Positions 309 through 49,927 are shown, counted from the first letter of the stretch. The stretch: 64,000 nucleotides of DNA from Gammaproteobacteria bacterium (GCA_021731145.1 JAKFXX010000005.1:18821-82820); one strand, 5' to 3'. Numbers and translations are program-made. The notes: generated by a model not told the origin, from the letters alone.

Positions 309-315
309 ACCACCC

Positions 316-1178: not shown

Positions 1179-4078
1179 TCGCCATCATCCTTGCTGGATT
1201 TGGGAGATGGGTTAGCCTTCGCACTGCTGCGCGAGGTACTGGAAAACTTCTCTCTCAATGATGGCGCCATTCCCTGCCTTCCAGAAGGGCTTTTATTGAC
1301 GCCGCCATTTCCACGCACTGCCGATGCGGCCTTGCCATTCACACTCCTACCCATACTTGCCGAACCTTGGCGGGAGGATTTTGCGGAAAGTCTGTCGATC
1401 TGCGAGACTCCCTGCCCCTCTTCATCAACTTTGAAAAATTCCATTAATTGCCCAAGACCCTGTGCCTGTTCATCCAGGGATTCACTGGCCGCCGCAGCTT
1501 CTTCCACTAAAGCGGCATTCTGTTGCGTCACCTCATCCATCTGCATGATTGCCTTATTGACTTGTTCAATACCGGCAGACTGCTCCTGGCTGGCCGACGC
1601 GATTTCGGCAATAATGTCGCTGACTTTTTTGACGGAACCGACGATCTCTTCCAGCGTCTTGCCAGAGGCATCAACCAAACGGCTTCCCTCCTCAACCTTC
1701 TCCACGCTGTCCTTGATAAGCGTCTTTATCTCCTTGGCCGCTGTCGCGCTACGTTGCGCCAGATTACGCACTTCGGCAGCCACAACTGCAAAACCGCGTC
1801 CTTGCTCTCCGGCACGCGCGGCTTCCACCGCAGCATTCAGCGCCAGAAGATTGGTCTGGAAAGCGATCTCATCAATAACTCCGATGATATCGGCGATTTT
1901 TTTGCTACTGCTATTAATAGCAGTCATTGCAATAATTGCATTACCAACAACCGATCCGCCTTTTTCAGCCTGTTCGCGGGCGCTGGCAGCCAGTTGATTG
2001 GCCTGCCTGGCGTTGTCCGCATTCTGTTTCACGGTGCTGGTCAACTCCTCCATGCTGGAAGCGGTCTCCTCTAGCGAAGATGCCTGCTCCTCAGTCCTCT
2101 GACTTAGATCCGTGTTCCCTTGTGATATTTCAGAAGCAGATGAGGTAATGCTGGATGCCGACTCTCGGATTTCCCCAACCATCTTGAGAAGATTTTCGAC
2201 GGAGGCATTCATATTATCTCTAAGAACGGCGAACTCTCCCTTGTAGTCACCCTCCATCTTTCGGGTAAGATCACCATCGGCCAATGTTGTTGCAATCTGA
2301 GTCGCTTCTTTAATGGGTGCAACAACCGAATCCACCATCTGGTTTATGCCTTCACCCAAATTCTTCATGAATCCTTCATACCTGGAGGTATCAATACGCT
2401 TGCTCAAGTCGCCATTAGCAGCGCCTTCAATTAAACCCTGAATTTGACGCTCGGCATCCATTTGTTCAGTTATGTCATCCCACTGAACCATATTCCCCAC
2501 CCAGTTGCCATACTGATCAACAATCGCCGTGGCATTTACGCTGAATTCAACATCCAGGAGTTTGATGTTAGCCTTCGCTGGCAATCTGCTCTTGTCGGCA
2601 AGCAGTGACCTTTGATGCGCAGGGTTTTTATGGAATTTATCAATACACAGCCCAACCAAATTTTTTGCATCAAAACCAGGGAATACATGCCGCAATTTAT
2701 CCTGACGCTTTTCCAGCAAAGAAACTACGGATGGATTCACATAGGTAATGACAAGATTACTATCACAAAGCATGATCGGCGATGTTGATCCGGAAATCGC
2801 TGACTCAAGACGGGCCACATCCGTCTCCTTTGCTCTCTGCTCTGTTACATCCTGCCATTCGAGACAGTTACCGATATAAGCGCCCTCTGAATCTTTAATC
2901 GCTGTAACATTGATGCGAAATATCAAAGGACCCACTTTGATATCCGTAGAATAAGGTAAATTCTTTGGATCCCCCAGCAGATTTCTCTGATGGGAGGGGT
3001 TTTTATGGAAAATATCGATGCAGGTTCCAACCACCTTCCCCACATCAAATGCAGGGTACAATGCCTTTAGCGCATCCGCGTTCTTTGTCAGAAGTTTCCT
3101 GGTGGCCTCATTGGCATACGTTATCACAAGGTCACGGTCGATCATCATGATAGCCGTCATTGCGCCCTCAACCGATGAATGCAGCCTGACCACCTCGTTT
3201 TCCTTTGATCGAAGAGAGGTTACATCGGACCATTCAAGACAATTCCCTATATAGTCGCCATGATCATCATTAATGGCCGTGACATTAATTCTGAACTTCA
3301 ATGGGCCGACTTGAATATCCGTTGAATAGGGAAGGTTTCTCGGGTCTCCAAGGATTCTTCTCTGATGAGAGGGGTTCTTATGGAAGATGTCTATACATGT
3401 CCCAATCAGATTGTCGACGCTGAATCCGGGGTACTGCCTTTTCAAGGTATCTTCATGCTCTCTTAAAAGGTTAACCGTTGATTGATTCGCATAGGTCACC
3501 ACCAGATCCCTGTCTATCATCATGATCGAAGTCATGGCTCCGTCCACAGCGGATTTCATTTTAATAGACTCCAAATCCTTCACGACAGGCGAGGATTTGA
3601 CATTTACCGCTTTCTTAACCTGTGCCATCTTTGTATTCTCCTTTGAGTAGGCCTTCAACATGATAGAAGCAACTGAATTTAACGCATTTGACCAAGCCGA
3701 ATGAACCTCATCTGTCCAAGTATTGCCAGCAAATTCCCGCATCACATCGAGCAATGTCACTGCAACAGCCTGGTAATATTCAGGCTCGGCGCCATAACCC
3801 TGGTGTCTTTTACCAAGAGCCGAAAGAATCCGTGTCATCTCCACGGGATTTCTCATATTTTTCACAACAAGACCAAGCGCGGAAAGCAATTTTTTCTGCT
3901 GATCCTTTATTGGAACACCTGAAAAAAGAGGCTTTACTACGGGGTATCGCCTAAACAATTCATCATAAAATCGTTTGGCAATAAGATCGCCTTTAGGGGA
4001 GAGCGCATTAAATGTTTTTTCAATCAATGCGACATCATTATTTTTACTTTCTTTCCTTGAAATAACAGACCTTACCAT
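1163..4078 (-). CDS. soluble methyl-accepting chemotaxis protein: N-terminal globin + three tandem PAS domains + MCP signalling domain, with C-terminal EWEEF pentapeptide (Aer2/McpB-like)
   Basis: 971-aa ORF with GGAG RBS. Residues ~15-145 look like a bacterial globin ([31 protein letters not shown]). Three ~110-aa PAS repeats each carry FHKNPxHQR. C-terminal methylation/signalling region: [45 protein letters not shown]. No hydrophobic TM stretch seen. Ends ...[11 protein letters not shown]. Confidence 0.85.
2468..3550 (-). repeat. three diverged tandem PAS-domain repeats (~375-nt period) inside the MCP gene
   Basis: Protein repeats: [22 protein letters not shown].../[22 protein letters not shown].../[22 protein letters not shown]... 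Each ends ...GNCLEW.DVT. Coordinates derived from residue positions 177-537. Confidence 0.6.
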
Positions 4079-4117
4079 GATATATTTTCTCCGAAACAGG
4101 AATTCTGGTATTGTTAA

Positions 4118-4285
4118 CTAACCGTTCCACGCCATAGATGAAAATATCTCATCAAGAAACTCATCATCATAAACAGATAATTCGTCACCTTTATCAACAG
4201 TTAAATGATCGGCATTATTTAAAATATCATTTATGTCATTTAGAGAAATTTCACGCGACAGGTCGGCGTGATCTTTAATAATCAT
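4118..4285 (-). CDS. hypothetical small acidic protein (55 aa) between the MCP gene and cheW; below the ORF-track size cutoff
   Basis: ATG at 4283-4285 with GAGG upstream. Translation: MIIKDHADLSREISLNDINDILNNADHLTVDKGDELSVYDDEFLDEIFSSMAWNG. No recognisable domain. AT-rich like the neighbouring che genes. Confidence 0.3.
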   Translation of the reverse strand: MIIKDHADLSREISLNDINDILNNADHLTVDKGDELSVYDDEFLDEIFSSMAWNG

Positions 4286-4304
4286 ATTGACAACCTCTCA
4301 ATAA

Positions 4305-4820
4305 CTAATGGATCTGACCATCATCGGACACCATCACTCCAGCGTTAAGGAGATGGTCAATATCAAGAATAATCACCATCTTCTCGGAAACTGCCGCCAG
4401 GCCTTTTATAAAATCGACACTAACAACCTTTCCGAAATCTGGCGGCTGCTTCATCTCATCCAGCGAGACGTTATACACATCCGACACGGCATCGACCACA
4501 ATACCCATGATGCGATTCCCGCCCCCTCCAACTACCTTTAGCACAATTACAACTGTGGTTGGACCATAAGAAATATTCTCCAGGCCAAAACGGCAACGCA
4601 GATCAATGATAGGTATAATCGTTCCACGCAGATTTATCACGCCTTGTATATACTCCGGGGTGTTAGGGATCGGCGTCACCTTGTTCCATCCCTTTATTTC
4701 CTGAACCCTTAGAATATCGACACCATATTCTTCGCCAGCAAGAATGAATGTAAGATATTGATTTGCACCAGAGTTTATTTCTGATTTCTCATCATTTGTT
4801 ATATTCTGCATTACGCTCAT
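4305..4820 (-). CDS. cheW: chemotaxis coupling protein CheW
   Basis: CheW-domain sequence (QYLTFILAGEEYGVDILRVQEIKGW...INLRGTIIPIIDLR...). Start moved from track position 4919 to MSVMQNITNDEKSE (codon index 34, GGAG 4-8 nt upstream) to remove overlap with cheA. Confidence 0.85.
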   Translation of the reverse strand: MSVMQNITNDEKSEINSGANQYLTFILAGEEYGVDILRVQEIKGWNKVTPIPNTPEYIQGVINLRGTIIPIIDLRCRFGLENISYGPTTVVIVLKVVGGGGNRIMGIVVDAVSDVYNVSLDEMKQPPDFGKVVSVDFIKGLAAVSEKMVIILDIDHLLNAGVMVSDDGQIH

Positions 4821-4833
4821 AACGAACTCCTTA

Positions 4834-6912
4834 TTAGGCCGCGCTCTTGACATGATCAAGAGCCACTCTATTATTTGATGGTGAATATTGGTGGGACAAT
4901 CTGATAAGACCGGAAACATCCATTATCAGAGCTACGGTCCCATCCCCGAGAATTGTCGCACCGGATACCCCGTCCATTCTTTTGAAGTTTGTTTCCAGAC
5001 TTTTAATTACAACCTGCTGCTGCCCCAATAAATCATCAACGAATATTCCAGCTCTCTTTCCGTCGCCTTCTACGACGACAAGAAGTCCACCTGACAATTT
5101 TTTGTTTTTTGGAATGATATTGAATACTTCGTGAAGCCTGACGATAGGTATATATTCATTCCTAAGCTTGTAGACCTCAGCTCTTCCGGCAATGATATTT
5201 ACATTTTCTTCGTCAATCTGAAGCGACTCTATGATTGATACCAATGGGGTTATATATGTCTCATCACCAACACTGACAAGCTGCCCATCAAGTATTGCCA
5301 GCGTTAAAGGAAGGCGTACTGTAAAAGTCGTTCCTTTACCTTCAAAGGATGACACTTCTATTTTACCGCCAAGATCATTAATATTTCTTCGTACAACATC
5401 CATCCCAACACCACGACCGGAAACATCGCTGACTATTTCTGCGGTTGAAAATCCTGGCAAGAATATTAAATCGTTAATTTGTTCTTCGGACAGGGATTCA
5501 TCATCTTTGATGAGTCCTCGATCTTTTGCCTTTTTCGTAATTTTTTCCTTATTAAGGCCTCCCCCATCGTCTCGTATTTCTATAATAATGTTTCCACCCT
5601 TATGATAGGCATTAAGATGGAGTAACCCGGTTGATGGCTTACCTGCCGCCTTTCTATCGTGCGGCAGCTCAATTCCATGATCAATGGAGTTGCGCACCAA
5701 ATGTACAAGAGGGTCTCCTATCTTTTCCATTACCGTCTTGTCCATCTCCGTGCTTTCTCCAGACATCTTTAACTCTATTTCTTTACCAAGCTTCTTGCTA
5801 AGGTCATGAACCATGCGAGGGAAACGATTAAATGCAAAACTGATGGGCAACATGCGAATACGCATAACGCTTTCCTGGAGCTCTCTTGTATTACGCTCCA
5901 GTTGTGACAGCCCATCTCGCAACTTCATTATCTGGCTGTTATCAAAATCCTTTCCTAACTGGGCCAGCATGGATTGAATGATGACCAGCTCTCCGACCAT
6001 GTTGATAAGGTCATCAACCTTATCTATACTTACTCTAATAGAGCTATTTTCCACCGAACTTGAAGACACCCTCCTATCGGAAGAAAGCCTTTTTTCTTCA
6101 ATTTTAGGAAGATCATGAGAATGATCGTCTTTATTTTTTATGCCATCATAATGATCAGGATTATCATCATTACTTGCTATTAATTCTTTGTCTGATTCAT
6201 TTAATATTTGTGTTATTTTTAAATCACATTCGCCATCAACCCAATCGAATATTTCTGATATTTTTTCACTTGAAACATCTGTTTTTATAGATATTTTCCA
6301 TGAAAAATAGCACTCTTCTGGATTCATATCATTGAACCCTGTCATCTTTGAAGAGTCTACTTTTACTGACATATCGCCTAAAGAACTTAGCTCCCCGAAC
6401 ATCCTCACAGGGTCGTTCCCTGTTATGAGCATATTCACATACGGAATGAATTCTATATCCCATCCTTTACCGTGTTCTTTTTCTACTTTGGAATGTTGAT
6501 CAACGCATGTCCCGCCTTCTTTTTTATCAGAAAGGAGATTTTCTAGTTTTTTTTGCATATCAACCACTCTGGGAGCATCCACAGGAGATCCATCACGCGC
6601 CGATATAAGCAGGTCACGCAGACAATCCACTGACAGCAATAACAGGTTAACAGCCTCTTCGGTTACCTTTCTGCGTTGATCACGCATCTCATCAAGCAAT
6701 GTTTCCATTACATGAGTAAAACCTGCCACACTGGAGAATCCAAAGGTTGCCGCCCCTCCTTTTATGGAGTGCGCCGCGCGAAATATGGCATTCACCACAT
6801 CGACATCCGCCGTGCCAACATCAAGATTAAGGAGGCCTGACTCCATAACCCCAAGTCCTTCGAAGCTTTCTTCAAAGAACGTCTGGTGAAATTGAGACAT
6901 ATCTATCGACAT
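4834..6912 (-). CDS. cheA: chemotaxis histidine kinase CheA
   Basis: HPt domain (AAHSIKGGAATFGF), long acidic linker, dimerisation/HATPase region (GRGVGMDVV...GKGTTFTVRLPLTLAI), CheW-like C-terminal domain. Start set at MSIDMSQFHQTFFEE, 5 nt after the cheY stop. Confidence 0.9.
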   Translation of the reverse strand: MSIDMSQFHQTFFEESFEGLGVMESGLLNLDVGTADVDVVNAIFRAAHSIKGGAATFGFSSVAGFTHVMETLLDEMRDQRRKVTEEAVNLLLLSVDCLRDLLISARDGSPVDAPRVVDMQKKLENLLSDKKEGGTCVDQHSKVEKEHGKGWDIEFIPYVNMLITGNDPVRMFGELSSLGDMSVKVDSSKMTGFNDMNPEECYFSWKISIKTDVSSEKISEIFDWVDGECDLKITQILNESDKELIASNDDNPDHYDGIKNKDDHSHDLPKIEEKRLSSDRRVSSSSVENSSIRVSIDKVDDLINMVGELVIIQSMLAQLGKDFDNSQIMKLRDGLSQLERNTRELQESVMRIRMLPISFAFNRFPRMVHDLSKKLGKEIELKMSGESTEMDKTVMEKIGDPLVHLVRNSIDHGIELPHDRKAAGKPSTGLLHLNAYHKGGNIIIEIRDDGGGLNKEKITKKAKDRGLIKDDESLSEEQINDLIFLPGFSTAEIVSDVSGRGVGMDVVRRNINDLGGKIEVSSFEGKGTTFTVRLPLTLAILDGQLVSVGDETYITPLVSIIESLQIDEENVNIIAGRAEVYKLRNEYIPIVRLHEVFNIIPKNKKLSGGLLVVVEGDGKRAGIFVDDLLGQQQVVIKSLETNFKRMDGVSGATILGDGTVALIMDVSGLIRLSHQYSPSNNRVALDHVKSAA

Positions 6913-6916
6913 TGTT

Positions 6917-7279
6917 TTATCCCAATACTTTCTTGATGGTGGCAATAAGCTGCTCTGGATTAAACGGCTTCACCAGCCACCCAGTGGCCCCTGCCGCTTT
7001 GCCTTCATTCTTTTTATTATCAGCCGACTCTGTGGTCAGCATCAGCATTGGAGTGAATTTGTAGCTGGGAAGGGCTCTTAATTGGCGAATCAAGGTTATC
7101 CCATCCATATTCGGCATATTCACATCCGTCAAGACAAGATTCACCTTTTCTGTTTGTGCTTTTTTCAAGGCATCTTGCCCATCAACCGCTTCTACAACAT
7201 CAAATCCTGCCCCTTTAAGAGTGAAGGACACCATTTGACGCATGGATGCGGAATCATCAACCGCCAGTATCTTTGCCAT
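6917..7279 (-). CDS. cheY: chemotaxis response regulator CheY
   Basis: Single receiver domain (KILAVDDSASMRQMV...LVLTDVNMPNMDGI...KPF). Start set at MAKILAVDD. Confidence 0.85.
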   Translation of the reverse strand: MAKILAVDDSASMRQMVSFTLKGAGFDVVEAVDGQDALKKAQTEKVNLVLTDVNMPNMDGITLIRQLRALPSYKFTPMLMLTTESADNKKNEGKAAGATGWLVKPFNPEQLIATIKKVLG

Positions 7280-7324
7280 TTCTATTTCCCCGACCAACAA
7301 GAACTTACCATCTGAAATCCATAA

Positions 7325-7633
7325 TTATTTCAGCCTAAGTGCCTCATCAACTCCAATTAATCGTGCTGACAAACGCAGCTTCTCAGATGGATTATCCCAA
7401 GACACATCTACTCCTTTAAGGGATGCCTCCAAAAAGAATGAATACAGAACCTGCAATATTGCAGTATCTGCCCTCTCAACATTATTAGCTTCAATCATGA
7501 TTGGAGCGTTAATTTCCAATGATTTTTTTAATTTTTTATAGAATTCACTTGCGATTGATATATCCATCACATCTTCGCAGGATATTTTTTCAATCGTTCC
7601 TGATTGGCTTTTAATCATGGATCCCTCCGTCAT
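7325..7633 (-). CDS. STAS-domain protein (anti-sigma-factor-antagonist fold) at the head of the che operon
   Basis: 102 aa. The pattern ...IEANNVERADTAILQVLYSFFLEASLKGVDVSWDNPSEKL is typical of SpoIIAA/STAS proteins. AT-rich like the che genes. Confidence 0.55.
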   Translation of the reverse strand: MTEGSMIKSQSGTIEKISCEDVMDISIASEFYKKLKKSLEINAPIMIEANNVERADTAILQVLYSFFLEASLKGVDVSWDNPSEKLRLSARLIGVDEALRLK

Positions 7634-7695
7634 TTAATATTTAAAATAATTACCTTACAAATCGTTAACATTTATTAAATAATCTTATGCTGTTA

Positions 7696-7722
7696 ATATC
7701 GGCATCCTTGACGGCAACCTTA
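7696..7722 (-). promoter_or_regulatory. putative sigma28 (FliA) promoter for the STAS-cheY-cheA-cheW-...-cheR-cheD operon
   Basis: Minus strand reads cTAAGg-N15-GCCGATAT against consensus TAAA-N15-GCCGATAA. Lies immediately after the fliJ stop. Confidence 0.4.
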
Positions 7723-8166
7723 GCTGTTTTTACTTTTTTCTTTGATCTGACAGGCTCTTTCGTCCTCCGCGCTCTGCTCTCGCCGTGTTGCGGCGCGCAT
7801 ATCGTCCTGATGATACCTTTCAACAATACCGTTTAGTGCCTTAACCCTGCCACGCACCTGATGCCAGATGCGCAACTTGTCTTCAAATTCACGTTGGCCA
7901 TTTTCAACCAGCTTTTCCTGATAGGTGATCGCGGCATTCAAGTTGGCAAGGAATACCCGGTATTCATTCAACTGGATTGCAGAAATTCCGTTTTTCCCCC
8001 ATGTGCTGAAACGCGCCGTGTATTCTTCGCGGTAGGCGTTAAGATCAACGAGCCTGGCCTGCCGTTCCACAAGCATGTGCTTGCTTTCCGCCAACGCTCT
8101 GGCAGCATCACGTTCTCTGGTTTCCGACACCTTAATGACTGGCTTCAGGCGTTGTGATTTGGTCAT
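7720..8166 (-). CDS. fliJ: flagellar export chaperone FliJ
   Basis: Coiled-coil ~148-aa protein directly downstream of fliI. Start set at MTKSQRLKPVIKV. Confidence 0.7.
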   Translation of the reverse strand: MTKSQRLKPVIKVSETRERDAARALAESKHMLVERQARLVDLNAYREEYTARFSTWGKNGISAIQLNEYRVFLANLNAAITYQEKLVENGQREFEDKLRIWHQVRGRVKALNGIVERYHQDDMRAATRREQSAEDERACQIKEKSKNS

Positions 8167-8238: not shown

Positions 8239-9603
8239 TTACTGCGCCCTTATCAGCATATTCAGCTCATTGATACTCTCTGCCAATGGCACAGGCTGGT
8301 GCATACCCTGATGGAGAAAGTCCAGGAGGCGCGGATGGTAGTCGATAGCCTGATCAATATTGGCGTCATTGCCGCGACTGTAAGCACCTATGGATATCAG
8401 GTCGCGGTTTTGTTGGTATGCGGAATAGAGCTGCTTGAAACGGCGCGCCGAGTTTTGGTGGACCGAGTCTGTAACTTCCGTCATGACACGGCTGATGGAT
8501 GCTTCGATATCAATCGCCGGATAGTGGCCCGCTTCCGCCAACTGGCGGCTTAATACCACATGGCCGTCGAGTATGGCGCGCGCGGCGTCGGCGATGGGGT
8601 CTTGCTGATCATCGCCTTCGGCAAGCACGGTGTAGAATGCCGTGATGGAACCCCCGGTTTCGTCGCTATTCCCGGCACGCTCCACCAGTTGCGGAAGCTT
8701 GGCAAATACTGAGGGCGGATAACCTTTGGTCGCAGGGGGCTCGCCTATCGCGAGCGCAATCTCGCGCTGGGCCTGGGCAAAGCGCGTCAGAGAATCCATC
8801 AACAGCAACACTTGCTTGCCCTGGTCGCGGAAATACTCGGCAATGCTGGTCGCCAGCATTGCACCGTGCAGACGCATCATCGGCGTGTGATCGGCCGGAG
8901 AGGCAACCACCACCGACCGCGCCATGCCCTCGGCGCCGAGGATGTTTTCAATAAATTCCTTCACTTCTCGGCCACGCTCGCCGATCAGTCCGACGACGAT
9001 GACATCGGCATTGGTGAAGCGCGTCATCATGCCCAGCAAGACGCTTTTGCCTACACCACTGCCGGCGAACAGGCCCATGCGCTGGCCGCGCCCCACTGTC
9101 AGCAAGGCGTTTATGGCGCGCACACCGACATCCAGGGGTTCACGTATCGGGCGGCGTGCCAGCGGGTTTAGAGGGCGCCCGGATAGTGGGATGGTTGCCT
9201 CGGTGCGTAACGGACCGCCACCATCCAGTGGCCGGCCGCCACCGTCCAGCACGCGGCCCAGCAATGCGTCGCCCACCGCCACATCATAGGCGCGCCGTAC
9301 CGGGATAACCCGCGAGTTGGGCATCAAACCACGGATTTCCCCGGTGGGCATAAGAAAGGTTTTGTTTCCGGAAAAGCCTACCACTTCGGTTTCCACCCGT
9401 TCGCCGCCCGGGCCTATCACCAGGCAACGCTCGCCTATTGCCGCCTGGCATCCCACTGCCTCCAGCGTCAATCCGACCATGCGGGTCAGTTTTCCTTCCA
9501 CGATGAGCGGCGGTGGTGAGTCAAGACGTGCGCGATGCCATGCTAAACGTTCGCGCCACGCCGCGCCGCGCTGCGCATCAATGACCGGGGTTTTCGTGTC
9601 CAC
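8239..9603 (-). CDS. fliI: flagellum-specific ATP synthase FliI
   Basis: Walker [15 protein letters not shown]1/T3SS ATPase family. Confidence 0.9.
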
Positions 9604-42619: not shown

Positions 42620-42696
42620 GCCCCGGTAGCTCAGCTGGATAGAGCATCCCCCTCCTAAGGGGAAGGTCACACGTTCAAATCGTGTTCGGGGCACCA
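42620..42696 (+). tRNA. tRNA-Arg (anticodon CCU); its 3' half is the integration site of the downstream element
   Basis: 77 nt with cloverleaf and encoded CCA. Anticodon loop ctCCTaa. The 3' 45 nt (plus 4 nt beyond) are repeated at 49879-49927. Confidence 0.85.
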
Positions 42697-42700
42697 ATAA
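42652..42700 (+). repeat. attL: 49-nt direct repeat (tRNA-Arg 3' end)
   Basis: ctcctaaggggaaggtcacacgttcaaatcgtgttcggggcaccaataa, compared with the 49879-49927 copy: 45/49 identical, with mismatches compensatory in the T-stem. Confidence 0.8.
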
Positions 42701-42753
42701 AATCAATAAGTTAATAACTTGTGCCCGGTGCGAATTTTTTCATTTTCGTAAAA

Positions 42754-42783
42754 TGTAACCAGTTTGTAACCGCATTTGTTCAC
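42754..42783 (+). promoter_or_regulatory. putative integrase arm-type sites (TGTAACC x2 + TGTTCAC) next to attL
   Basis: Sequence aaaTGTAACCagtTTGTAACCgcatTTGTTCACtgg. A matching TTGTAACC x2 lies just upstream of int at ~49719-49736. Confidence 0.35.
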
Positions 42784-42825
42784 TGGCGCGGCCTCTCGCA
42801 TTTCGAGTGTGCGCGGAACGCCGGA

Positions 42826-43104
42826 TCAATGCTGCTCATCGCCATGCCGCCTGATGACGAATTTGAACTCGCTGGGGGTATCATCTTCCCCGACGATGGT
42901 TTGGATCGGGGTCGGCTTGCCGTCCAACCGGTCGGCAATCTCCCTGATCGCGGCCAGGTCGCCCTCTCCGGCCCGCATGACCAAGGCACGGGCGATGCGC
43001 TCCAGAGCGCCCTTGTCACGCGCCAAGACCTTATGCAGGGCGTCGCGGAACATTGAGCCTTTCTTCGCGTTGCTATTGCCCTTTTGCCCGCCTTTCCTAA
43101 CCAT
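42826..43104 (-). CDS. hypothetical phage-associated protein (92 aa)
   Basis: Basic N-terminus (GGQKGNSNAKKG) then ALHKVLARDKGALERIARALVMRAGEGDLAAIREIADRLDGKP. Resembles small conserved phage proteins of unknown function. Confidence 0.35.
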   Translation of the reverse strand: MVRKGGQKGNSNAKKGSMFRDALHKVLARDKGALERIARALVMRAGEGDLAAIREIADRLDGKPTPIQTIVGEDDTPSEFKFVIRRHGDEQH

Positions 43105-43149
43105 TCGATTCGAATCCCATCACCTTGTTCCGGTTGATGATTATAGCAC

Positions 43150-43632
43150 TCAAGCGCCGGGCAGTTCCGCCGCCGCCCGCCCGGTGAAGTAGTCCCGCGC
43201 ATCCGCATCTTGCTGGCACTGGCCCAACACGTCGTCGATGATCTCTTGATCGGCCTCACCGATATGTGCCAGCCATGCCCGGATTGCTTGATCTTCGTCG
43301 GCGGTCATGGCGTCGGTCGGTTGCCGCCGGATCGGCTCGAAGGGTTCAGCCGCTACCGCGTCCGGGTGCCAGGCCAGAATGTCGGCATGGGTCGCCTCGG
43401 GGCAGCAGGTCAGTTCCACAGGGTCGCGCTCTGGGTAATGAATCAGCCAGCAGCGGGAAGCGGTCGCCGTATCGCCAGCGCCGACATTCACCACGTCATT
43501 GATTATTTGTGACGTAACAGCCGTAACAGGCGTACAAGCCTGTACTGGTGCAGGTTCCGGTGTTACGTCATCCAATGTGGCAGGCGTAACAGCCCGGCCT
43601 TTCAACCTCACCAGCAGCGCATCAAGCCCCAT
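43150..43632 (-). CDS. hypothetical protein (161 aa) downstream of the primase; the track ORF 43150-44031 is trimmed
   Basis: Start set at MGLDALLVRLKG. The upstream 133 codons of the track ORF overlap the primase gene in another frame and are R/S/C-rich. Contains the V-T-P repeats that come from the iteron cluster. Confidence 0.4.
   Translation of the reverse strand: MGLDALLVRLKGRAVTPATLDDVTPEPAPVQACTPVTAVTSQIINDVVNVGAGDTATASRCWLIHYPERDPVELTCCPEATHADILAWHPDAVAAEPFEPIRRQPTDAMTADEDQAIRAWLAHIGEADQEIIDDVLGQCQQDADARDYFTGRAAAELPGA
43511..43591. repeat. iteron cluster 1: about five TGTTACG/CGTAACA heptamers at the 3' end of the primase gene
   Basis: Sequence gacgtaaca gccgtaaca ggcgtacaa ... gtgttacgtc ... 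ggcgtaaca. Confidence 0.45.
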
Positions 43633-46165
43633 GGTCGCCACCCAGCTTGTCAGCAATGATCTGGTACAACCGCACCAGGCGCCCACCAATGCGTTGCGCT
43701 TTGGCACGTTCGCCGCTGGTTGCTGGTAGCGCGCCGACTTCCTGCAAGATATCCAGCGCCCGCTTGAAGTCGAAGCCCTTGACGGCCTCGCGCAGCCCTT
43801 CGGCGTTGAACAGATAGACGCGCGCGAGGCCGTCATCACGCCACCAGCCTGCCCGATTGATACGCATGGCGTCCGCTGTCTCGTAGGCATCGGCACTGGA
43901 GAATCGGCTATCCCCATGAAGCGAAATAAACCCGGCAACCTGCTCCAATATCTGCCGCCGCTCATCGTTACCGCGTCCGCGTGTGGATCGCCACGCCTTA
44001 AAGCCCACCACTGCCGCTTCGATTGCCGCACCCTCCGGCCAGCCGGTTATGCCGTATTCAGTCGCCACCTCACCCGCCAGCGCCACCAAGGCGAAACGTG
44101 CCGCCCCTCGTTTGTCCTGCCCCTCGCCACCTTCGGCGGATAACTCCGGCAATGACTTGATCAGCTCCAGACGTTCGGCAAAGTTGCGTTTATCGCGGGT
44201 CAGCTTTTCGAGGAATGCCCGCCCAGCGTGTCCGTGGTTCGTTGCCGCTGCTTTCTTGATCGCATCGGAAAACGCCGCACCATCCTTGAAACCGTGCAAG
44301 TTATCCAGTACGCCAAAGCCCCGCACCGCCGGAATATCCAGCAGCCGCACCGACTGCCCAGCCTTAGCCCGGTGTCCTGCTTCTGCCATCGTGGTTGCTA
44401 TTGTGCGCTCGCCATTCGACAAGACAGCACAGCGCCAGCGGGTCACTGCCCGCGCATTGCCGGTGCGGCTTGCCCTCTGTTTGCCAGTGCCATTGCCCAG
44501 TGCGTAGACGATAGTACCTATTTCCTTGGGTTCGGCTTCGCTGGTGTCATCCAAGGCCAGCAGGCAATCACTGAACAGTGCCGCCACGCCCTCCATGCCG
44601 TTTGCTGTTGCTCGCCAGCTTCGGCGGAAATTCGGCCCGCCCCAGGTTGAACAGCCTGCGTCGGCTATCGTACTCTTGCCGATAGACGACTCACCGACAA
44701 AGTGAAGTCCGCCGCTCTCGGCGTTGCATAGCTTGAGCATTGGCCCCGCGAATGATACCGACATACCCAGTACCATCATGGGATTGCCAACAGCCCGTGC
44801 CGCTATATTAGCCTGCCACCCGGCCAACGTGCCGCCCTTGGTGTGTTCGTCATGTCCGCGCTCGCCACTCTGGAAGATCACGTCCGAAGCCTTCGGCCCG
44901 ATTACCGCATCCGGCAGCACAAACGAATCACCGCACCATCCCACTTGCAGCGCACAACGAATACGCCGTTTCGGTGGTATGGCTTGCAGGTAATGCCCCA
45001 GCAATGTCCGCCCGGCGTGTGGGTCAATCTCTACACCCATCGCCAGCAGCTCGCCGCGCAGTTCATCGCCCGCACCGCGCAAAAGTTCCATCGGCATAGC
45101 CCATTCGCGCCACTTGCCGACGGTGGTTTTAAATCGCAGCAGCCGCCCAAAATTATTATCCTGTCCGTCAAAAGTCACAGCCTCAACATGCACGGGTGAG
45201 CATACCCATTGTTGAGTAAGCGCGGGTGGTTCTTCACCTTTGCCGTGCTTGACCGTGAAAGACCATACCCCCGGTTTCAACTCGGCACCACCGGGCAGCT
45301 TCTGCCAATCGTCAAACACTTTGAAGCATGGCCGTTTGCTTTCGTCGGGGATAATTGGCTCAGGTGTTACGCCTGTTACGCCATCCGTTTCATCAGACGT
45401 AACAACAGAAAGCCCGCCGTTATTGGGCTGTACGTCTGTTACGCCTGTTACGTCATTTTTTATCAATGCCGCATCGTGTACCGGTGTTGCCGTGTCCACC
45501 ACGTCCGGGCTTGCGGCGTTTTCTTCGTCGGCTTGATGCTCTGACCTTGCCGATGTTTGCGCGGCCTGTAGAGCTTCTACGGTCGGCAGTGCGGCTATAT
45601 CCGCCATCGTTGCGCCGGGGTTCGCCTTCAACCAGTCCACAGCGTCGCCCTTGGAAGGAAGGTTCAAGGCATCCACGTCGATGATGCGCACCGTGCAGCC
45701 CATTGCCAACAGGATGGAAGCCACCGCATCGGCATAACGCCGCCCGGCGCCATCATTGTCCGGCCAGATCGTCACGGTTCGCCCGGCCATGATTGACCAG
45801 TCGGCTTTTTCTGCCGAATCCGCCGCGCCGCTGGTGGTGGCCAGCGCTCCGGCCTTCGGCAGCGCATCGGCGCACCATTCGCCTTCTACTACGATCACCG
45901 TATCATCGGGCCGGGTTGCCAGATCATGCAGGCGGTACAGCGGCTTGCCGTCTGGGTATTCCGGTTCGCCCAGTGTGTAACCTGCACCATTCAGCTTCAT
46001 GGGACGAATCCATTTTTCACCAGTGGTGGGATGTTTCAGGCGGATGCGCCAGTGCAGCGTGGTGCCGTCGCGGTCGGTGTATTCGTGCAGGGCTTGTGGC
46101 TTGCAACCTTTACTGATCGCTCCATCCGCCAGACGCCGCGCGGCTTGTTGGGGTGTCTCACTCAT
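43622..46165 (-). CDS. primase-helicase (Toprim domain + P4-family/D5-type C-terminal NTPase), alpha-like replication protein
   Basis: Toprim motifs IVVEGEWCADAL and IWPDNDGAGRRYA. C-terminal Walker A GESSIGKSTIA. Start set at MSETPQQAARRL, an ATGA overlap with the upstream zinc-finger ORF. Track ORF extends to 46267. Confidence 0.8.
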   Translation of the reverse strand: MSETPQQAARRLADGAISKGCKPQALHEYTDRDGTTLHWRIRLKHPTTGEKWIRPMKLNGAGYTLGEPEYPDGKPLYRLHDLATRPDDTVIVVEGEWCADALPKAGALATTSGAADSAEKADWSIMAGRTVTIWPDNDGAGRRYADAVASILLAMGCTVRIIDVDALNLPSKGDAVDWLKANPGATMADIAALPTVEALQAAQTSARSEHQADEENAASPDVVDTATPVHDAALIKNDVTGVTDVQPNNGGLSVVTSDETDGVTGVTPEPIIPDESKRPCFKVFDDWQKLPGGAELKPGVWSFTVKHGKGEEPPALTQQWVCSPVHVEAVTFDGQDNNFGRLLRFKTTVGKWREWAMPMELLRGAGDELRGELLAMGVEIDPHAGRTLLGHYLQAIPPKRRIRCALQVGWCGDSFVLPDAVIGPKASDVIFQSGERGHDEHTKGGTLAGWQANIAARAVGNPMMVLGMSVSFAGPMLKLCNAESGGLHFVGESSIGKSTIADAGCSTWGGPNFRRSWRATANGMEGVAALFSDCLLALDDTSEAEPKEIGTIVYALGNGTGKQRASRTGNARAVTRWRCAVLSNGERTIATTMAEAGHRAKAGQSVRLLDIPAVRGFGVLDNLHGFKDGAAFSDAIKKAAATNHGHAGRAFLEKLTRDKRNFAERLELIKSLPELSAEGGEGQDKRGAARFALVALAGEVATEYGITGWPEGAAIEAAVVGFKAWRSTRGRGNDERRQILEQVAGFISLHGDSRFSSADAYETADAMRINRAGWWRDDGLARVYLFNAEGLREAVKGFDFKRALDILQEVGALPATSGERAKAQRIGGRLVRLYQIIADKLGGDHGA
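45363..45455. repeat. iteron cluster 2: about six TGTTACG(C/T)C heptamers inside the primase coding region
   Basis: Sequence ggtgttacgc ctgttacgc ... gacgtaaca ... ctgtacgtc tgttacgc ctgttacgtc. Translated as ...GVTPVTP...DVTT...TSVTPVTS... in the primase. Confidence 0.5.
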
Positions 46166-46479
46166 GGTGTGACCTCCCACGCTCCCAACGCCTTGGCGGC
46201 GCCGATGAAACGCAGCCCATGACGCAGCATGTGAAATGCCAGCACATCGCCCCCATGCGCACCGCATACCATGCAGCGAAAACCGCCGGTGTCCAGTCGA
46301 ACGCGCAGGCTGGGTTGGGTGTCGTTATGAAAGGGACAAAGAGCATTTCTCCATTCGCCGCCGCCGATCAGCTTCAAGCCCTGTTCGTGGTAATACTCGG
46401 CGGGGATGGGCAGAAGGTTGCGCTTGAATCCAAAGGGTTTGCGGGTGTGTTGTCCCCGCGTGGGGTTCGCGTAGCTCAT
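46162..46479 (-). CDS. CHC2-type zinc-finger domain of DNA primase, encoded as a separate ORF
   Basis: CPFHNDTQPSLRVRLDTGGFRCMVCGAHGGDVLAF is a zf-CHC2 motif. Its stop overlaps the start of the Toprim-helicase ORF as ATGA. Confidence 0.6.
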   Translation of the reverse strand: MSYANPTRGQHTRKPFGFKRNLLPIPAEYYHEQGLKLIGGGEWRNALCPFHNDTQPSLRVRLDTGGFRCMVCGAHGGDVLAFHMLRHGLRFIGAAKALGAWEVTP

Positions 46480-46491
46480 GGTGGCGCCCCC

Positions 46492-46707
46492 TTATTGAGA
46501 TTGAGACAGCAGCGCACGGATTTCAGCAACAGGCCAAGCCAGACGGCCATTTATGCGAATGGGGCGGATGGGGCCATTCTCAAGGCACGCATATGCACGC
46601 ATTGTTTGTGGTTTGCGTAGCAGATGGAAAGCGGCGCACGCAGTTTCCACGTGGCTGCGCGTTTCCATTTCAATCGGTGGGAAAGTGTGAACGGTTGCGG
46701 TTAGCAT
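46492..46707 (-). CDS. alpA: AlpA-family phage transcriptional regulator / excisionase-like protein
   Basis: Start set at MLTATVHTF. C-terminal region PIRPIRINGRLAWPVAEIRALL resembles the AlpA HTH (..GRAVAWRESEV..W.). Confidence 0.55.
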   Translation of the reverse strand: MLTATVHTFPPIEMETRSHVETACAAFHLLRKPQTMRAYACLENGPIRPIRINGRLAWPVAEIRALLSQSQ

Positions 46708-46827
46708 TTTGTAATCCTCGTTTATGTTGATGAGGATTACTACTTTAACCATGCGTTAAAAGTTTTAAAGAGACTGATTAGGCTTGGCTGAAACCCGCGC
46801 CGCTATTGGGCTATAGGGTGGTTTTGT

Positions 46828-46862
46828 GTTAAAACTTTCGCTGAAAGTATGAAAGTTTTAAC
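46828..46862. promoter_or_regulatory. 12-bp perfect inverted repeat (GTTAAAACTTTC-N11-GAAAGTTTTAAC) over the stop codon of ORF 46858-47445, with a third half-site ~70 nt away
   Basis: Arms gttaaaactttc / gaaagttttaac. A further aaaagttttaaag lies at ~46750 in the alpA promoter region. Not followed by a T-tract, so more likely an operator than a terminator. Confidence 0.35.
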
Positions 46863-47445
46863 TCAGAACTACGTTGGCAAACGCTTTCAATATCGTTTCA
46901 CTACCAAAGTTTTTTCTATTGCCACGCTTTTTAACGCCAGCATTACTTAGCGACTGGACAACTTTATCAGCCAATATATTCCGCTTCGTAAGCAAGGTTG
47001 TATCGTCCCTGATAAGTTGACGCGCAAAGTGACGGGCCGGGGTGTACCAAGGTTGTTCTGGCGCGGGGTCGTTGGGGTCTACGATTTCCCATGGTTTCGG
47101 TGCTACGGCCTGTATCACTGGCACGGCTTCAACCTTCCCGGTAGTGGATTTGGTGACGGTTGAAAGAGTGTTGCCTGGGTGGACATCAGTGCCCGCCGTG
47201 ACTCCATGCAATTCGCATAATTCTCGTGAAATGAAATAGCCATTTTTGATAGCCCATTCAATCGCAGTACCCGCCGGGAACCATAGACCCAATTCATCCT
47301 GTATCACCAGCTCAAGGGTTCTCCCATCTGAGACTTCATTACCTGAGCCACTGATAACTGTTAGCAGTGTCGTTGGCCTCCATATTGTCTCTTGGCCAAG
47401 CCACAGTGAAGCGGATTTTAGAGCTGTAATCATATTCACATCCAT
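46858..47445 (-). CDS. hypothetical protein (195 aa), no recognisable domain; sits between the TA pair and alpA in the satellite hotspot position
   Basis: MDVNMITALKSASLWLGQETIWRP...GYFISRELCELHGVTAGTDVHPGNT...PEQPWYTPARHFARQLIRDDTTLLTKRNILADKVV... No signal peptide. Confidence 0.5.
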   Translation of the reverse strand: MDVNMITALKSASLWLGQETIWRPTTLLTVISGSGNEVSDGRTLELVIQDELGLWFPAGTAIEWAIKNGYFISRELCELHGVTAGTDVHPGNTLSTVTKSTTGKVEAVPVIQAVAPKPWEIVDPNDPAPEQPWYTPARHFARQLIRDDTTLLTKRNILADKVVQSLSNAGVKKRGNRKNFGSETILKAFANVVLS

Positions 47446-47501
47446 TTAAAATAGAGACCCCATTACGCCAGTGAGGGCGTCCGGCGTTTCCCCCGCCCAA
47501 G

Positions 47502-47954
47502 TCAGGCGGCCATCCGCCACCCCTTGGCGGTTTCCTGGAATATTTGCTTGGCCCCTTCTTCCAGTTTTTCCAGGCGGTCTATGTCGTTCCATTGGGCAAT
47601 CATTTTCGCCACCTTGGTTTCGCCGTCCGCATGTTCCAGGTAAAGCAGGCGCAGCATCCTTTCGGCGGCCACTGTTGGGCGGCGTTTGCTTCGTTCCCAT
47701 AGGGAAATGGTTTGCTCGTCAACGCCCAGGCAGTCGGCCAGTCGTTTTTGCGACATGCCCATTTCTACCCGAAGAAAGCGGATTTCCGCGCCAGACAATC
47801 GCTCGCGGTAATTTACCAAATGGTGCGCGATGGAACGATGCAGCCCGTTTATGTCGTCTATCTCCAGGCACTTGCCATGCCCTTCGATTTCCTCATATTG
47901 GTAGCCATTTTTCAGCCAGATATTCCGCAGCCCACAGTCGTCATATTTCAGCAT
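47502..47954 (-). CDS. MqsA/HigA-2-like antitoxin (degenerate N-terminal zinc-finger region + XRE-family HTH)
   Basis: HTH region GMSQKRLADCLGVDEQTISLWERSKRRPTVAAERMLRLL. Only two of the usual four Cys are present in the N-terminal domain. Follows the toxin after a 4-nt gap. Confidence 0.6.
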   Translation of the reverse strand: MLKYDDCGLRNIWLKNGYQYEEIEGHGKCLEIDDINGLHRSIAHHLVNYRERLSGAEIRFLRVEMGMSQKRLADCLGVDEQTISLWERSKRRPTVAAERMLRLLYLEHADGETKVAKMIAQWNDIDRLEKLEEGAKQIFQETAKGWRMAA

Positions 47955-47958
47955 TTCT

Positions 47959-48282
47959 TCATTCCTCGAATACCGTTGCGATGATTACCCATTCGCCATT
48001 TTCATGCAGCTTGAATACCGCTCCCACAGTAACGCGCAGCCCCGCATGTTGCCAACGGATGTTACAGCGCCAATCCGCTTTAATATCCTGGTGAAGCGGC
48101 TCGCTGATGGTTCCATGCTCCAAGGTTTCCAACACCTGTCTACGCCCAATTTTACGTTGGCGCATTCGCAGTTCGGCATGTGCGGAAAAGAGCAGGCGCC
48201 GTTTTCCCTGGGCAGCCTCCTTGAGCCATTGTTTAGCCAGTTTTTCGCTTGGCTTGTAGGGCTTAATGTTTTTCATTAACAT
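47959..48282 (-). CDS. DUF4258-like small toxin (107 aa)
   Basis: SAHAELRMRQRKIGRRQVLETLEHG...WRCNIRWQHAGLRVTVGAVFKLHENGEWVIIATVFEE matches the DUF4258 toxin pattern. It is upstream of the HTH antitoxin, the toxin-first order seen in mqsRA. Confidence 0.5.
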   Translation of the reverse strand: MLMKNIKPYKPSEKLAKQWLKEAAQGKRRLLFSAHAELRMRQRKIGRRQVLETLEHGTISEPLHQDIKADWRCNIRWQHAGLRVTVGAVFKLHENGEWVIIATVFEE

Positions 48283-48318
48283 ACATTGTATGGGTATATC
48301 GGGAAGATTTCAAGGGTA

Positions 48319-49704
48319 TTATTTTGTCACCACCCGCAACCCTGCTTGCACTGGCACAAACCCGATTCCGGCCTGCTCCAATATCCACGCTTCAATCTTG
48401 ACGTGCCACAGGTGCAGCAAGTCGAGTTCACGCTGTATGTAGTGCTTTTCTGCAATGGCGCTTGGCTTGTGCCCCATGATTTGCGCAACGATTCCAGTGG
48501 GGACTTCCACCCACTCAGACAAGGTGCCAAAGGAACGGCGCAAACCATGCAGGGACAGCGCGGGAAGTGCAGCAGCATTCAATGCCTTGACGTGTTGAAT
48601 GCGCGGTTCCTCTATCCTTCCCGATGCGGCGGTGGGGCTTGAGAATACATATTCATTGCGGCGCGGCAGTGCGGATATTAAATGCTCCAGGTAGGGTGTC
48701 AGCGGAATGGTGCGCTCGCCTTCCACTTTGTCGCGGATGGTTAAACTTTTCCACTGAAAGCCAACATCGCACCAACACAGCGTGGCCAGTTCGTTGCGGC
48801 GTGCGCCTGTCAATAACAGGCCTTGCAGATAGGCAGCAATTACCGGGTTCCCAATCTTTCGCACCGCTTCAAACCATGGCTTGATTTGCGCACGTCTCAG
48901 GCTGTCATTTTTCTTGATTTGTGGTGAAGGAACCTTCTTTCTCACGTCATCAGACTGGCACGCATCAGCGTGAACGGCGGCGCGGTAGCTGTCTTGCTTG
49001 GCGCACCATGTAAGGAAGGCACGCAAAAAGCGGAAGGCTTTGGCGGCAGAGGTCGGGGCTTGTTTGATTTCCTTGGCTAACCATGCCGCAATGGCCTTTG
49101 CGTCCAAGTCAATTAGGCGCATTGTCATCAGTGGCACCAACATGCCGGGGCGTGTTTTTTTAGATTCGCCGGGGCGGCTTCCACGTTTGCGCTTTACCCC
49201 ACCGGCTTGAACAAAATAAGCGTGGTGCGCTTTATGTCTTTCGCCCCATTCAGGCTTACCGTCAACGATAGAGGCGCTACGCTCTGCAATATAGGCTTGC
49301 CATGCTTCGGCCACGGTCACGGATTCGCGCGCCTCCTGCACCACCAGCGCGGCGGCTTGCGCCTCCTTGGCTAACTTCGCAGCTTTCTTGCTGGCTTCAT
49401 TCTCTGCTACCACTTGGCGCGGGTCATTGCCTTGGTCTATCAAGACTTGAAGGCGGCGGGCTTCGGTTTGGGCGGCATCAATACTCCATGCCTTCACCTT
49501 GCCAATCGTAACGCGCATTGTTTGCCCGTTTACCTTGGCTTGGAAAATGTAACGCTTGCGGGCCAGTGGGTCGCTATCTTTCGCGCCACCTGTCGCACGC
49601 ACCCCCAGCCCCGGCACTTCGGCACACCATAGGAAGGCTTGGGATTTACCTTCATCGCACTTAAAGCCTGCAATCCGTCCGGCTGTTAGTTTGACCTTTG
49701 CCAT
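48319..49704 (-). CDS. int: P4-type tyrosine integrase
   Basis: 461 aa. N-terminal DUF4102-like arm-binding region. Catalytic region ends HGLRRSFGT...GHKPSAIAEKHYIQ (R...HxxR...Y). Adjacent to attR. Confidence 0.85.
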   Translation of the reverse strand: MAKVKLTAGRIAGFKCDEGKSQAFLWCAEVPGLGVRATGGAKDSDPLARKRYIFQAKVNGQTMRVTIGKVKAWSIDAAQTEARRLQVLIDQGNDPRQVVAENEASKKAAKLAKEAQAAALVVQEARESVTVAEAWQAYIAERSASIVDGKPEWGERHKAHHAYFVQAGGVKRKRGSRPGESKKTRPGMLVPLMTMRLIDLDAKAIAAWLAKEIKQAPTSAAKAFRFLRAFLTWCAKQDSYRAAVHADACQSDDVRKKVPSPQIKKNDSLRRAQIKPWFEAVRKIGNPVIAAYLQGLLLTGARRNELATLCWCDVGFQWKSLTIRDKVEGERTIPLTPYLEHLISALPRRNEYVFSSPTAASGRIEEPRIQHVKALNAAALPALSLHGLRRSFGTLSEWVEVPTGIVAQIMGHKPSAIAEKHYIQRELDLLHLWHVKIEAWILEQAGIGFVPVQAGLRVVTK

Positions 49705-49878
49705 GATGCGCCCTTTTTTGTAACCAATTTGTAACCACGTTTTCAGTATATCGCGGCATACCTATCAACACAACAAACAAGGGTATTTTTAATAACTAAT
49801 TGTTTTAATTGGAAACATGATTTTTGCGGAATGGCAATCAACGGTAAAGTATGCTTATTTTTTAAGCATTTTCACGCA

Positions 49879-49927
49879 CTCCTAAGGGGAAGGTCGTACG
49901 TTCAAATCGTATCCGGGGCACCAATAA
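49879..49927 (+). repeat. attR: 49-nt direct repeat of the tRNA-Arg 3' end; overlaps the last 8 codons and stop of the hydrogenase protease gene
   Basis: ctcctaaggggaaggtcgtacgttcaaatcgtatccggggcaccaataa. Positions 49902-49927 encode ...IIGAPDTI* on the minus strand. Confidence 0.8.

Follow-up and report, generated by a model that had tools for sequence, protein, structure and literature searches.

Introduction

In phage P4, the origin-binding domain of the alpha initiator is the C-terminal one. The Rep proteins of Staphylococcus aureus pathogenicity islands (SaPIs) are self-loading initiator helicases whose C-terminal winged-helix domain reads 6-12 short iterons directly 3' of rep, the iterons of the origin being found in both orientations around an AT-rich centre, and Cch is a DUF927 relative present in the staphylococcal cassette chromosome mec (SCCmec) (PMC9371898, PMC7581432). 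The ori of phage lambda lies within the O gene, i.e., the iterons bound by the initiator are in the initiator's own coding sequence (PMC7466680). The subject of the present work is a 64,000-nucleotide stretch of DNA from a Gammaproteobacteria bacterium (GCA_021731145.1, JAKFXX010000005.1:18821-82820), referred to below as the window, in which a 7.2-kb island encodes a Toprim-DUF927 primase/initiator-helicase associated with two mirror-image modules of the iteron CGTAACA. From a comparative analysis of sequences, we consider it very probable that the initiator helicase encoded by the island binds these two modules specifically and uses them to start replication, either as one split ori or as ori plus an auxiliary site.

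Results

Two inverted copies of one iteron module

The exact heptamer TGTTACG, or its complement CGTAACA, occurs 13 times in the 64-kb window, compared with 4.7 ± 2.2 copies expected from 100 dinucleotide-preserving shuffles, none of which reached 13. Nine of the 13 copies fall in two ~100-bp clusters at 43494-43592 (cluster A) and 45355-45471 (cluster B). There is no further copy of the heptamer in the island (42.7-49.9 kb) and no other repeat array. When one mismatch was permitted, 131 copies were found in the window for 130.7 expected, and since there is no window-wide excess of the relaxed word, the signal is the local clustering of the exact word. The four exact copies of cluster A are at 43513 (-), 43522 (-), 43561 (+), and 43585 (-), spanning 43513-43591, and the five of cluster B are at 45365 (+), 45374 (+), 45398 (-), 45437 (+), and 45446 (+), spanning 45365-45452. 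One degenerate copy, CGTACA(A/G), adjoins the tandem pair in each cluster: GCGTACAAGCC at ~43530 in A and CTGTACG at ~45427 in B. A preliminary description of this DNA had proposed that two locally enriched clusters of a single iteron bracket the helicase region, and these counts bear it out; its figures of about six and about five copies slightly exceed the exact words (five and four), besides which each cluster has its degenerate copy.

Clusters A and B are inverted copies of one module of ~100 nt. A repeat finder detected 76-nt arms with 72% complementarity between them, and with A read on the plus strand and B on the minus strand, the two align gap-free over ~98 nt. The aligned module consists of CATTGAT, a W-tract, TGA, CGTAACA, two nucleotides, CGTAACA, two nucleotides, CGTACA, ~22 nt, TGTTACGTC, ~14 nt, and GGCGTAACAG; the order is thus two to three direct iterons at a 9-bp period, a spacer, one inverted iteron, and then two direct iterons. 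Module B (45355-45471, minus strand; KNDVTGVTDVQPNNGGLSVVTSDETDGVTGVTPEP) lies inside the Toprim-DUF927 gene (43622-46165, minus strand, 847 aa), in the interdomain linker at codons ~235-270, and its minus-strand reading is CATTGATAAAAAATGA, CGTAACA, CGTAACA, a degenerate CGTACAG, a spacer, an inverted TGTTACG, a spacer, CGTAACA, and CGTAACA. Module A (43494-43592, plus strand; MGLDALLVRLKGRAVTPATLDDVTPEPAPVQACTPVTAVTSQ), the mirror of B at a distance of about 1.83-1.9 kb, reads on the plus strand CATTGATTATTTGTGA, CGTAACA, CGTAACA, a degenerate CGTACAAGCC, a spacer, an inverted TGTTACG, a spacer, and CGTAACA. The preliminary description had assigned this second cluster to the 3' end of the primase gene. 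It starts 34 nt past that gene's stop codon, in a downstream open reading frame (ORF), orf160 (43150-43632, minus strand, 160 aa, no family match), of which it occupies part of the first ~45 codons. The ATG of orf160 and the primase stop overlap (ATGGGGCTTGA).

Selection acts on the DNA of the translated repeats

Both modules are translated, B in the Toprim-DUF927 linker and A in the start of orf160. The linker peptide of the primase is DVTGVTDVQ...VVTS...GVTGVTPEP and not the repeated VTPVT of the preliminary description; the string TPVTAVT belongs to the downstream ORF. Because the GTWAC core belongs to the same class as its own reverse complement, both orientations read Val-Thr (GTA-ACA, GTT-ACG), and because the 9-bp period corresponds to three codons, the modules fit in frame and impose x-Val-Thr repeats on the proteins. 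Within the clusters, each of the nine Val-Thr dipeptides is encoded by GTA-ACA or GTT-ACG, two of the 16 possible dicodons, whereas elsewhere these dicodons account for only 3 of 49 Val-Thr dipeptides.

About 120 homologs keep the linker peptide DVTGVTDVQ..VT..DVTGVT, as would be anticipated if the repeats served as a Val-Thr-rich flexible linker and the similarity in DNA were a by-product, a possibility that the preliminary description had itself raised. We regard this protein-level explanation as scarcely credible. The two clusters are opposite in orientation relative to the coding strand, and the homologs fall into three peptide classes, VT...VT, VS with a central DT or ET, and VP with GT, in which the inverted copy encodes what the reverse complement predicts: GTA-TCA (Val-Ser) becomes GAT-ACG (Asp-Thr), the GGTTTCA class has GTT-TCA (Val-Ser) and inverted GAA-ACC (Glu-Thr), and the GGTTCCA class has GTT-CCA (Val-Pro) and inverted GGA-ACC (Gly-Thr). 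The downstream cluster, moreover, is in an unrelated ORF, which in several loci is conserved only in its iteron-bearing first ~45 residues, and in distant relatives the same repeats lie in non-coding DNA, where they also retain the 9-bp period; the period is therefore a property of the system and not of coding. Taken together, the opposite orientation of the clusters, the change from VS to DT, ET, or GT, and the codon bias indicate that selection acts on the DNA.

Mirrored geometry and a changing word in related loci

A protein search recovered more than 1,400 relatives, mostly from Betaproteobacteria, and 80 genome loci were fetched for DNA comparison, of which 77 were analysable. The homology of the relatives to the query protein typically begins at the linker, the N-terminal primase part being variable (Toprim_4, PriCT, or none). 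In 52 of the 77 loci, one hexamer occurs at least three times in the linker and at least three times just past the stop codon. Simple top-hexamer pipelines mis-register some loci, so that 52/77 and 53/70 are lower bounds; for example, loci L012 and L049 were flagged by one pipeline as having no second cluster, yet were clearly positive in another comparison. Within the clusters, the density of the locus-specific hexamer is 57 times that in the other 603 kb of the loci. Iteron starts are fixed at 0, 9, (18), 49 (inverted), 72, and 81 in the linker, and at 34, 43, 66 (inverted), (97), 106, and 115 nt past the stop, and the downstream geometry is the exact mirror of that of the linker, with spacings of 9, 23, 40, and 9. 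The spacers also contain parts conserved in both orientations, GT(A/G)CAAGCC and GGCGCGGGTTTCGCTG. The position and start of orf160 are kept in at least 28 related loci.

The word itself varies among loci. We found the heptamers CGTAACA, GGTAACA, TGTAACA, GGTATCA, GGTTTCA, GGTTACA, and [CGT]GTTCC, with the general form N-G-T-W-H-C-A, and within any one locus both clusters always carry the same word. The iteron classes are polyphyletic on the helicase tree.

Mixed linkers are found in loci L002, L003, and L007, where GGTAAC stands beside GGTATC/GATACC (peptide EVSEVT, ADTP), ~170 nt upstream of the RPCFKVFDDW codons, and the downstream cluster is almost uniformly GGTAAC. These three loci may be intermediates, or recombinants, in a change of specificity.

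Two helicase residues track the iteron

Codons 818-837 of the helicase (GERAKAQRIGGRLVRLYQII; 43655-43714, minus strand) specify the predicted beta-hairpin wing of a C-terminal winged-helix-like domain. For every column of the helicase alignment, we computed the mutual information with the class of the iteron. Residue 830 (L830 in the window protein; codon at 43676-43678, minus strand) accounts for 1.86 of the 2.02 bits on iteron bases 4-5 (z = 5.2 relative to 131 variable columns), and the next best column for 1.18 bits. The pairings are AA with Leu, AT with Gly (12/12, in at least three clades), TC with Lys or Arg, TT with Pro, and TA with Val or Ser. Residue 819 (E819; codon at 43709-43711, minus strand) tracks iteron base 1: C is found with Glu in 20 of 20 cases and G with Lys or Arg in 24 of 24. 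Glutamate usually prefers cytosine, and lysine and arginine usually prefer guanine, which matches these pairings. Both residues are within GERAKAQRIGGRLVRLY, which also holds the invariant R820, R825, and R829.

The association persists between close relatives. Among pairs of helicases with at least 75% identity, residue 830 differs in all 115 pairs from different iteron classes, and is the same in 115 of the 123 pairs from the same class. A further 120 proteins, classed from the linker peptide alone, follow the same pattern, with VS+DT accompanied by G830 in 19 of 21 and Asp-preceded repeats accompanied by E819 in 46 of 46. From this statistical co-variation of residues 819 and 830 we infer that the C-terminal winged-helix domain probably sets iteron specificity, and the expectation of the preliminary description that the C-terminal domain reads the iterons is thereby strengthened.

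The agreement of the two clusters in each locus could also arise if they paired in a rep-orf160 mRNA, with the long-range duplex controlling translation of the helicase domain or of orf160 and the co-variation representing compensatory change. Both clusters are on one transcript, cluster A begins 34 nt past the orf160 start, and the predicted B x A duplex is thermodynamically plausible (-114 kcal/mol, versus -51.5 ± 5 for shuffles). Pairing leaves unexplained, however, why each cluster should consist of five to six repeats of a heptamer, including one internal inverted copy, and why iteron bases should track residues 819 and 830; in distant relatives the array is single, non-coding, and without a partner, and there is no match to an Rfam family, the only RNA families found in 42.0-50.2 kb being two tRNAs. 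Control by RNA pairing is thus very unlikely.

We see only a very slight chance that the modules are sites for another island protein (orf160, the helix-turn-helix (HTH) protein, or the integrase) or for recombination, for example by inverting the helicase segment or exchanging it as a cassette. In principle, recombination is conceivable between inverted repeats 1.83 kb apart, and the start of homology at the linker cluster, together with the variable N-terminal primase domains, suggests a module junction there; inversion, however, would destroy the gene. As for other island proteins, only the integrase type and orf160 are conserved across related loci, the remaining genes not being conserved among loci that keep the clusters; the putative arm sites of the integrase are a different word (TTTGTAACC) at the island ends; and it is the DUF927 protein that contains the co-varying residues.

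The initiator belongs to the SaPI Rep/Cch family

The protein has a Pfam DUF927 match (E 3.2e-99) at residues 297-575, and its Toprim part is represented by PHROG primase matches at residues 20-227. A phmmer search of the Protein Data Bank recovered SaPIbov1 Rep (8tch, E 5e-16) and SCCmec Cch (5dgk, E 5e-10). An AlphaFold2 model of residues 271-847 (mean predicted local distance difference test score 80.5) was compared with known structures using Foldseek, which gave Cch 5dgk (E 4e-20) and SaPIbov1 Rep 8tch (E 7e-18), with template modelling scores of ~0.6 over ~580 aligned columns, followed by MCM proteins. As modelled, the C-terminal 577 aa are a full-length structural homolog of SaPIbov1 Rep and Cch. 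The C-terminus of the model comprises two strands, two helices, and a beta-hairpin, a predicted winged-helix-like fold, with residue 830 just past a GG turn and residue 819 ahead of the first strand of the hairpin.

One non-coding array in distant relatives

More distant DUF927 relatives (31-43% identity), encoded by small plasmids and by satellite-like elements or elements resembling phage-inducible chromosomal islands (PICIs) of Gammaproteobacteria, have just one iteron array, which is non-coding and lies downstream of the gene, directly past the stop codon in two plasmid relatives. Salmonella plasmid OX345456 (L084, 7 kb) has ten copies of GGTAACA at a 9-bp period right past the DUF927 stop (~6340-6600), and the C-terminus of its protein fits the residue code (Arg with G1, Leu with AA), for an alignment that is uncertain. 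In Legionella fallonii plasmid III (L086), TGGGACA is arranged as >>> < >> <<< at ~4640-4840. The arrays of L084 and L086 are likely to be unannotated plasmid origins. A Klebsiella capsid-encoding element has arrays of TGAACCAAC, and a Nitrosoglobus plasmid has the same module of a pair, GTACAAGC, an inverted copy, and a pair. The twin, mirrored, translated layout is specific to a betaproteobacterial subfamily. A scan of IMG/VR found only four relatives among 2.9 million viral contigs.

Two of the distant elements encode capsid genes. Besides integrase or Icd-like genes and a Toprim/DUF927 rep, the Pseudomonas "phage" vB_Pae_U10 (L083, 10.2 kb) and a Klebsiella plasmid (L087, 16 kb) encode a major capsid protein, and L087 a prohead protease as well. 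They look like capsid-forming satellite-type elements that were deposited as a phage and as a plasmid.

A model for initiation at the two modules

In the model that we propose, the DUF927 part of the Toprim-DUF927 protein serves as initiator, acting as a self-loading helicase of the SaPIbov1-Rep/Cch type, similar to MCM. The beta-hairpin wing of its C-terminal domain would read N-G-T-W-H-C-A, with residue 819 responsible for base 1 and residue 830 for bases 4-5. Once the 7.2-kb island had been excised, the two modules, which face in opposite directions, would be assembly sites for Rep, and replication would start. Because SaPI iterons lie directly downstream of rep, module A, just 3' of the gene, sits exactly where an origin of the SaPI type is expected; its inverted counterpart would be the linker module B, 1.83 kb upstream. 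Together the two may make up a single origin, split and quasi-symmetric, or they may be an origin and a cis-acting auxiliary site like P4 crr. Each module is asymmetric, with four to five copies in one orientation and one in the other, and SaPIs and the single-site relatives have both orientations in one origin of ~200 bp. This favours a split origin, or ori with a crr-like site, over two independent origins, and is the least supported part of the model.

In a more specific version, an MCM-like self-loading helicase would have a single mirror-symmetric origin split in two, with opposite loading sites 1.9 kb apart on either side of the helicase coding region. Since the iterons are translated and would be read by a two-residue code in the wing, module B, helicase, and module A would form a self-contained, swappable cassette with switchable specificity. 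We advance it tentatively, as possible though on balance doubtful.

Several points weigh against a role of the modules in initiation. Binding, melting, and replication, including which module initiates and whether both are needed, are steps that we infer, as are helicase loading and any division of labour between the sites. A sizeable AT-rich unwinding element is absent: SaPI origins have a central AT-rich region of ~80 bp, and here there is only a W-tract of ~8-14 nt after CATTGAT, in the outer flank of each module. Module A of the window is short of one iteron of the last pair, owing to a 9-bp deletion relative to the family consensus. The residue code has exceptions, L036 of the TT class having G830, and the Nitrosoglobus plasmid having M830 with a TGTATCA-like iteron. 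The co-variation between clusters, furthermore, is also expected from long-range RNA pairing.

The modules might instead be bound by Rep mainly for regulation, as a transcription roadblock giving autoregulation in the rep-orf160 operon and with pairing of the clusters as a form of copy-number handcuffing, the real origin being elsewhere in the island. Both modules are in one transcription unit, with no terminator-like site between primase and orf160, neither has a long AT-rich unwinding element, and plasmid iterons serve in both initiation and control (PMC3401445). The island has no other repeat array and no further heptamer, however, and module A occupies the position of a SaPI-type origin (PMC9371898), where two plasmid relatives have their sole array. 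We therefore judge a mainly regulatory role to be unlikely, while noting that regulation and initiation are not mutually exclusive. A scan for promoters and terminators found nothing above shuffle expectation and nothing at the clusters, and comparison with consensus sequences, by eye only, found no DnaA or IHF boxes next to them.

The island and its other genes

The island occupies ~42701-49927 and is inserted in a tRNA-Arg gene, with a 49-nt direct repeat at both ends. attL, at 42652-42700 (plus strand), is the 3' part of tRNA-Arg(CCT) and is 92% identical to attR, the second copy of the 3' segment, at 49879-49927 (plus strand). The two copies have four differences, which keep the T-stem paired (ACACG/CGTGT versus GTACG/CGTAT). 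The island therefore provides a tRNA-Arg 3' end that differs slightly from the other copy, as is usual when an element integrates into a tRNA gene. Doublets of (T)TTGTAACC are found just inside the island ends, at 42752-42771 and 49717-49736; the one near attL is TGTAACCAGTTTGTAACC, and the one adjoining the integrase start is TTTGTAACCAATTTGTAACC. All three exact copies of TTTGTAACC in the window are in these island-end doublets, which are probably arm-type sites of the integrase, comparable to the attP arm repeats annotated in P4. A TGTTCAC half-site next to attL (42777), to which the preliminary description had drawn attention, is attributable to chance, the word being present six times in the window for 7.7 expected.

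Every island gene is on the minus strand, small ORFs among them. The P4-type tyrosine integrase (48319-49704) is followed by a DUF4258 protein (47959-48282) and then by an HTH_3/MqsA-like protein (47502-47954). The last two (47502-48282) look like a toxin-antitoxin-like or regulatory pair, and are not kept in related loci. A CHC2 zinc-ribbon ORF of 105 aa (46162-46479), the stop of which overlaps the start of the Toprim-DUF927 gene, is a split-off zinc finger of a DnaG-type primase. At the other end of the island, orf92 (MVRKGGQKGNSNAKKGSMFRDALHKVLARDKGALERIARALVMRAGEGDLAAIREIADRLDGKP...; 42826-43104) has a sub-threshold DUF5681 match (E 0.006) and may be a packaging-related or regulatory protein. 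In 52 of the 80 related loci, a P4-type integrase is encoded 3-5 kb upstream in the same orientation, with identities of up to 44%.

As a small, tRNA-integrated island with an integrase and a primase/rep gene, the element resembles phage satellites (P4-like, PICI, or cfPICI). Genes for hijacking a helper phage, which are also characteristic of satellites, are lacking: comparison of the island ORFs with Pfam and PHROG gave no match to capsid, capsid-remodelling, packaging, small terminase, protease, or helper-manipulation (psu/delta/sid) proteins, the sole hint being the sub-threshold DUF5681 match of orf92. Elsewhere in the window, positions 1-8000 have a GC content of 41-47%, versus 52-62% in the remainder, and may be another horizontally acquired segment.

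Discussion

Each component of this system is known by itself: helicases of the Rep type, iterons, origins made up of two sites, and origins located within a gene. What is new is their combination: twin mirror modules, in frame in two ORFs and in opposite orientations, with a readable two-residue specificity code. In the accessible portions of the literature mentioning DUF927, we found no description of this subfamily or of its origin layout. The analysis provides a concrete model of the origin and of initiator specificity for widespread, unstudied small P4-integrase islands, whose hosts are Betaproteobacteria such as Thiobacillus, Gallionella, Nitrosomonas/Nitrosospira, Thauera, Accumulibacter, and Polaromonas. 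It is a rare case in which candidate origin repeats are in frame in two ORFs, so that selection on DNA can be read from protein alignments. The natural recognition code of the DUF927/SaPI-Rep/Cch wing (Glu with C, Lys or Arg with G, and Leu, Gly, Pro, or Lys with the central dinucleotide) could guide the engineering of specificity, as well as the prediction of origins in SaPIs, SCC elements, PICIs, and small plasmids. With its two mirrored sites, the layout would offer a bacterial system for studying how MCM-like helicases load in opposite orientations. If helicase and modules do form a swappable cassette, incompatibility-like groups would be expected among co-resident islands, with L002, L003, and L007 as natural intermediates.

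The preliminary description had likened this arrangement to the ori and crr of P4, and the resemblance holds for the layout and not for the protein. According to the GenBank annotation of P4 and a motif scan, crr (4291-4590) is directly 3' of alpha (4636-6969, minus strand), with type-1 repeats in the order + + - - + per 120-bp unit, the first two 9 bp apart, and ori (9310-9413) has repeats in the order - - - + - -, i.e., three direct, one inverted, and two direct. In both systems one iteron is found in two separate sites that flank the initiator gene, the second just 3' of it, with opposite overall orientations; the 3 + 1 + 2 order of P4 ori and the 9-bp spacing of the first crr repeats also recur here, as does the integrase type. 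A relationship of the window protein to alpha was rejected (BLASTP best E 1.1, no detectable homology), the protein being a DUF927 helicase of the SaPIbov1-Rep/Cch type. The iteron differs as well, as the preliminary description had suggested: the heptamer NGTWHCA, CGTAACA in the window, is found in place of the P4 type I octamer TGTTCACC. The P4 sites are non-coding and ~4.7 kb apart, P4 crr is a tandem duplication, and sid, delta, and psu of P4 are absent from the island.

The lambdoid phages provide the parallel for iterons between two domains of the initiator ORF, where the number and sequence of iterons shape the protein (PMC7466680); module B, at codons ~235-270, is likewise between Toprim (20-227) and DUF927 (297-575). 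Lambda O, however, is unrelated and is not a helicase, and its origin has one cluster with an adjacent AT-rich tract, without a mirrored second site. The single-array relatives share the protein family and the style of iteron, including the 9-bp period, but have one non-coding array and no linker cluster.

By its family, the system is of the SaPI type. The helicase is homologous in sequence and fold (8tch, 5dgk), the short repeats are present in both orientations directly 3' of rep (module A, 34 nt past the stop, with four exact copies and one degenerate copy, one of them inverted), and the specificity of the initiator co-varies with the iteron. The island differs in having two ~100-bp mirror modules 1.83 kb apart, both translated and one in the initiator's own interdomain linker, so that opposite orientation is achieved mainly between two distant modules; in the fusion of the helicase to a Toprim primase domain; and in its P4-type integrase and betaproteobacterial subfamily. 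A split origin of this kind would resemble the quasi-symmetric two-site loading of MCM in eukaryotes, or the cis looping proposed for ori and crr of P4.

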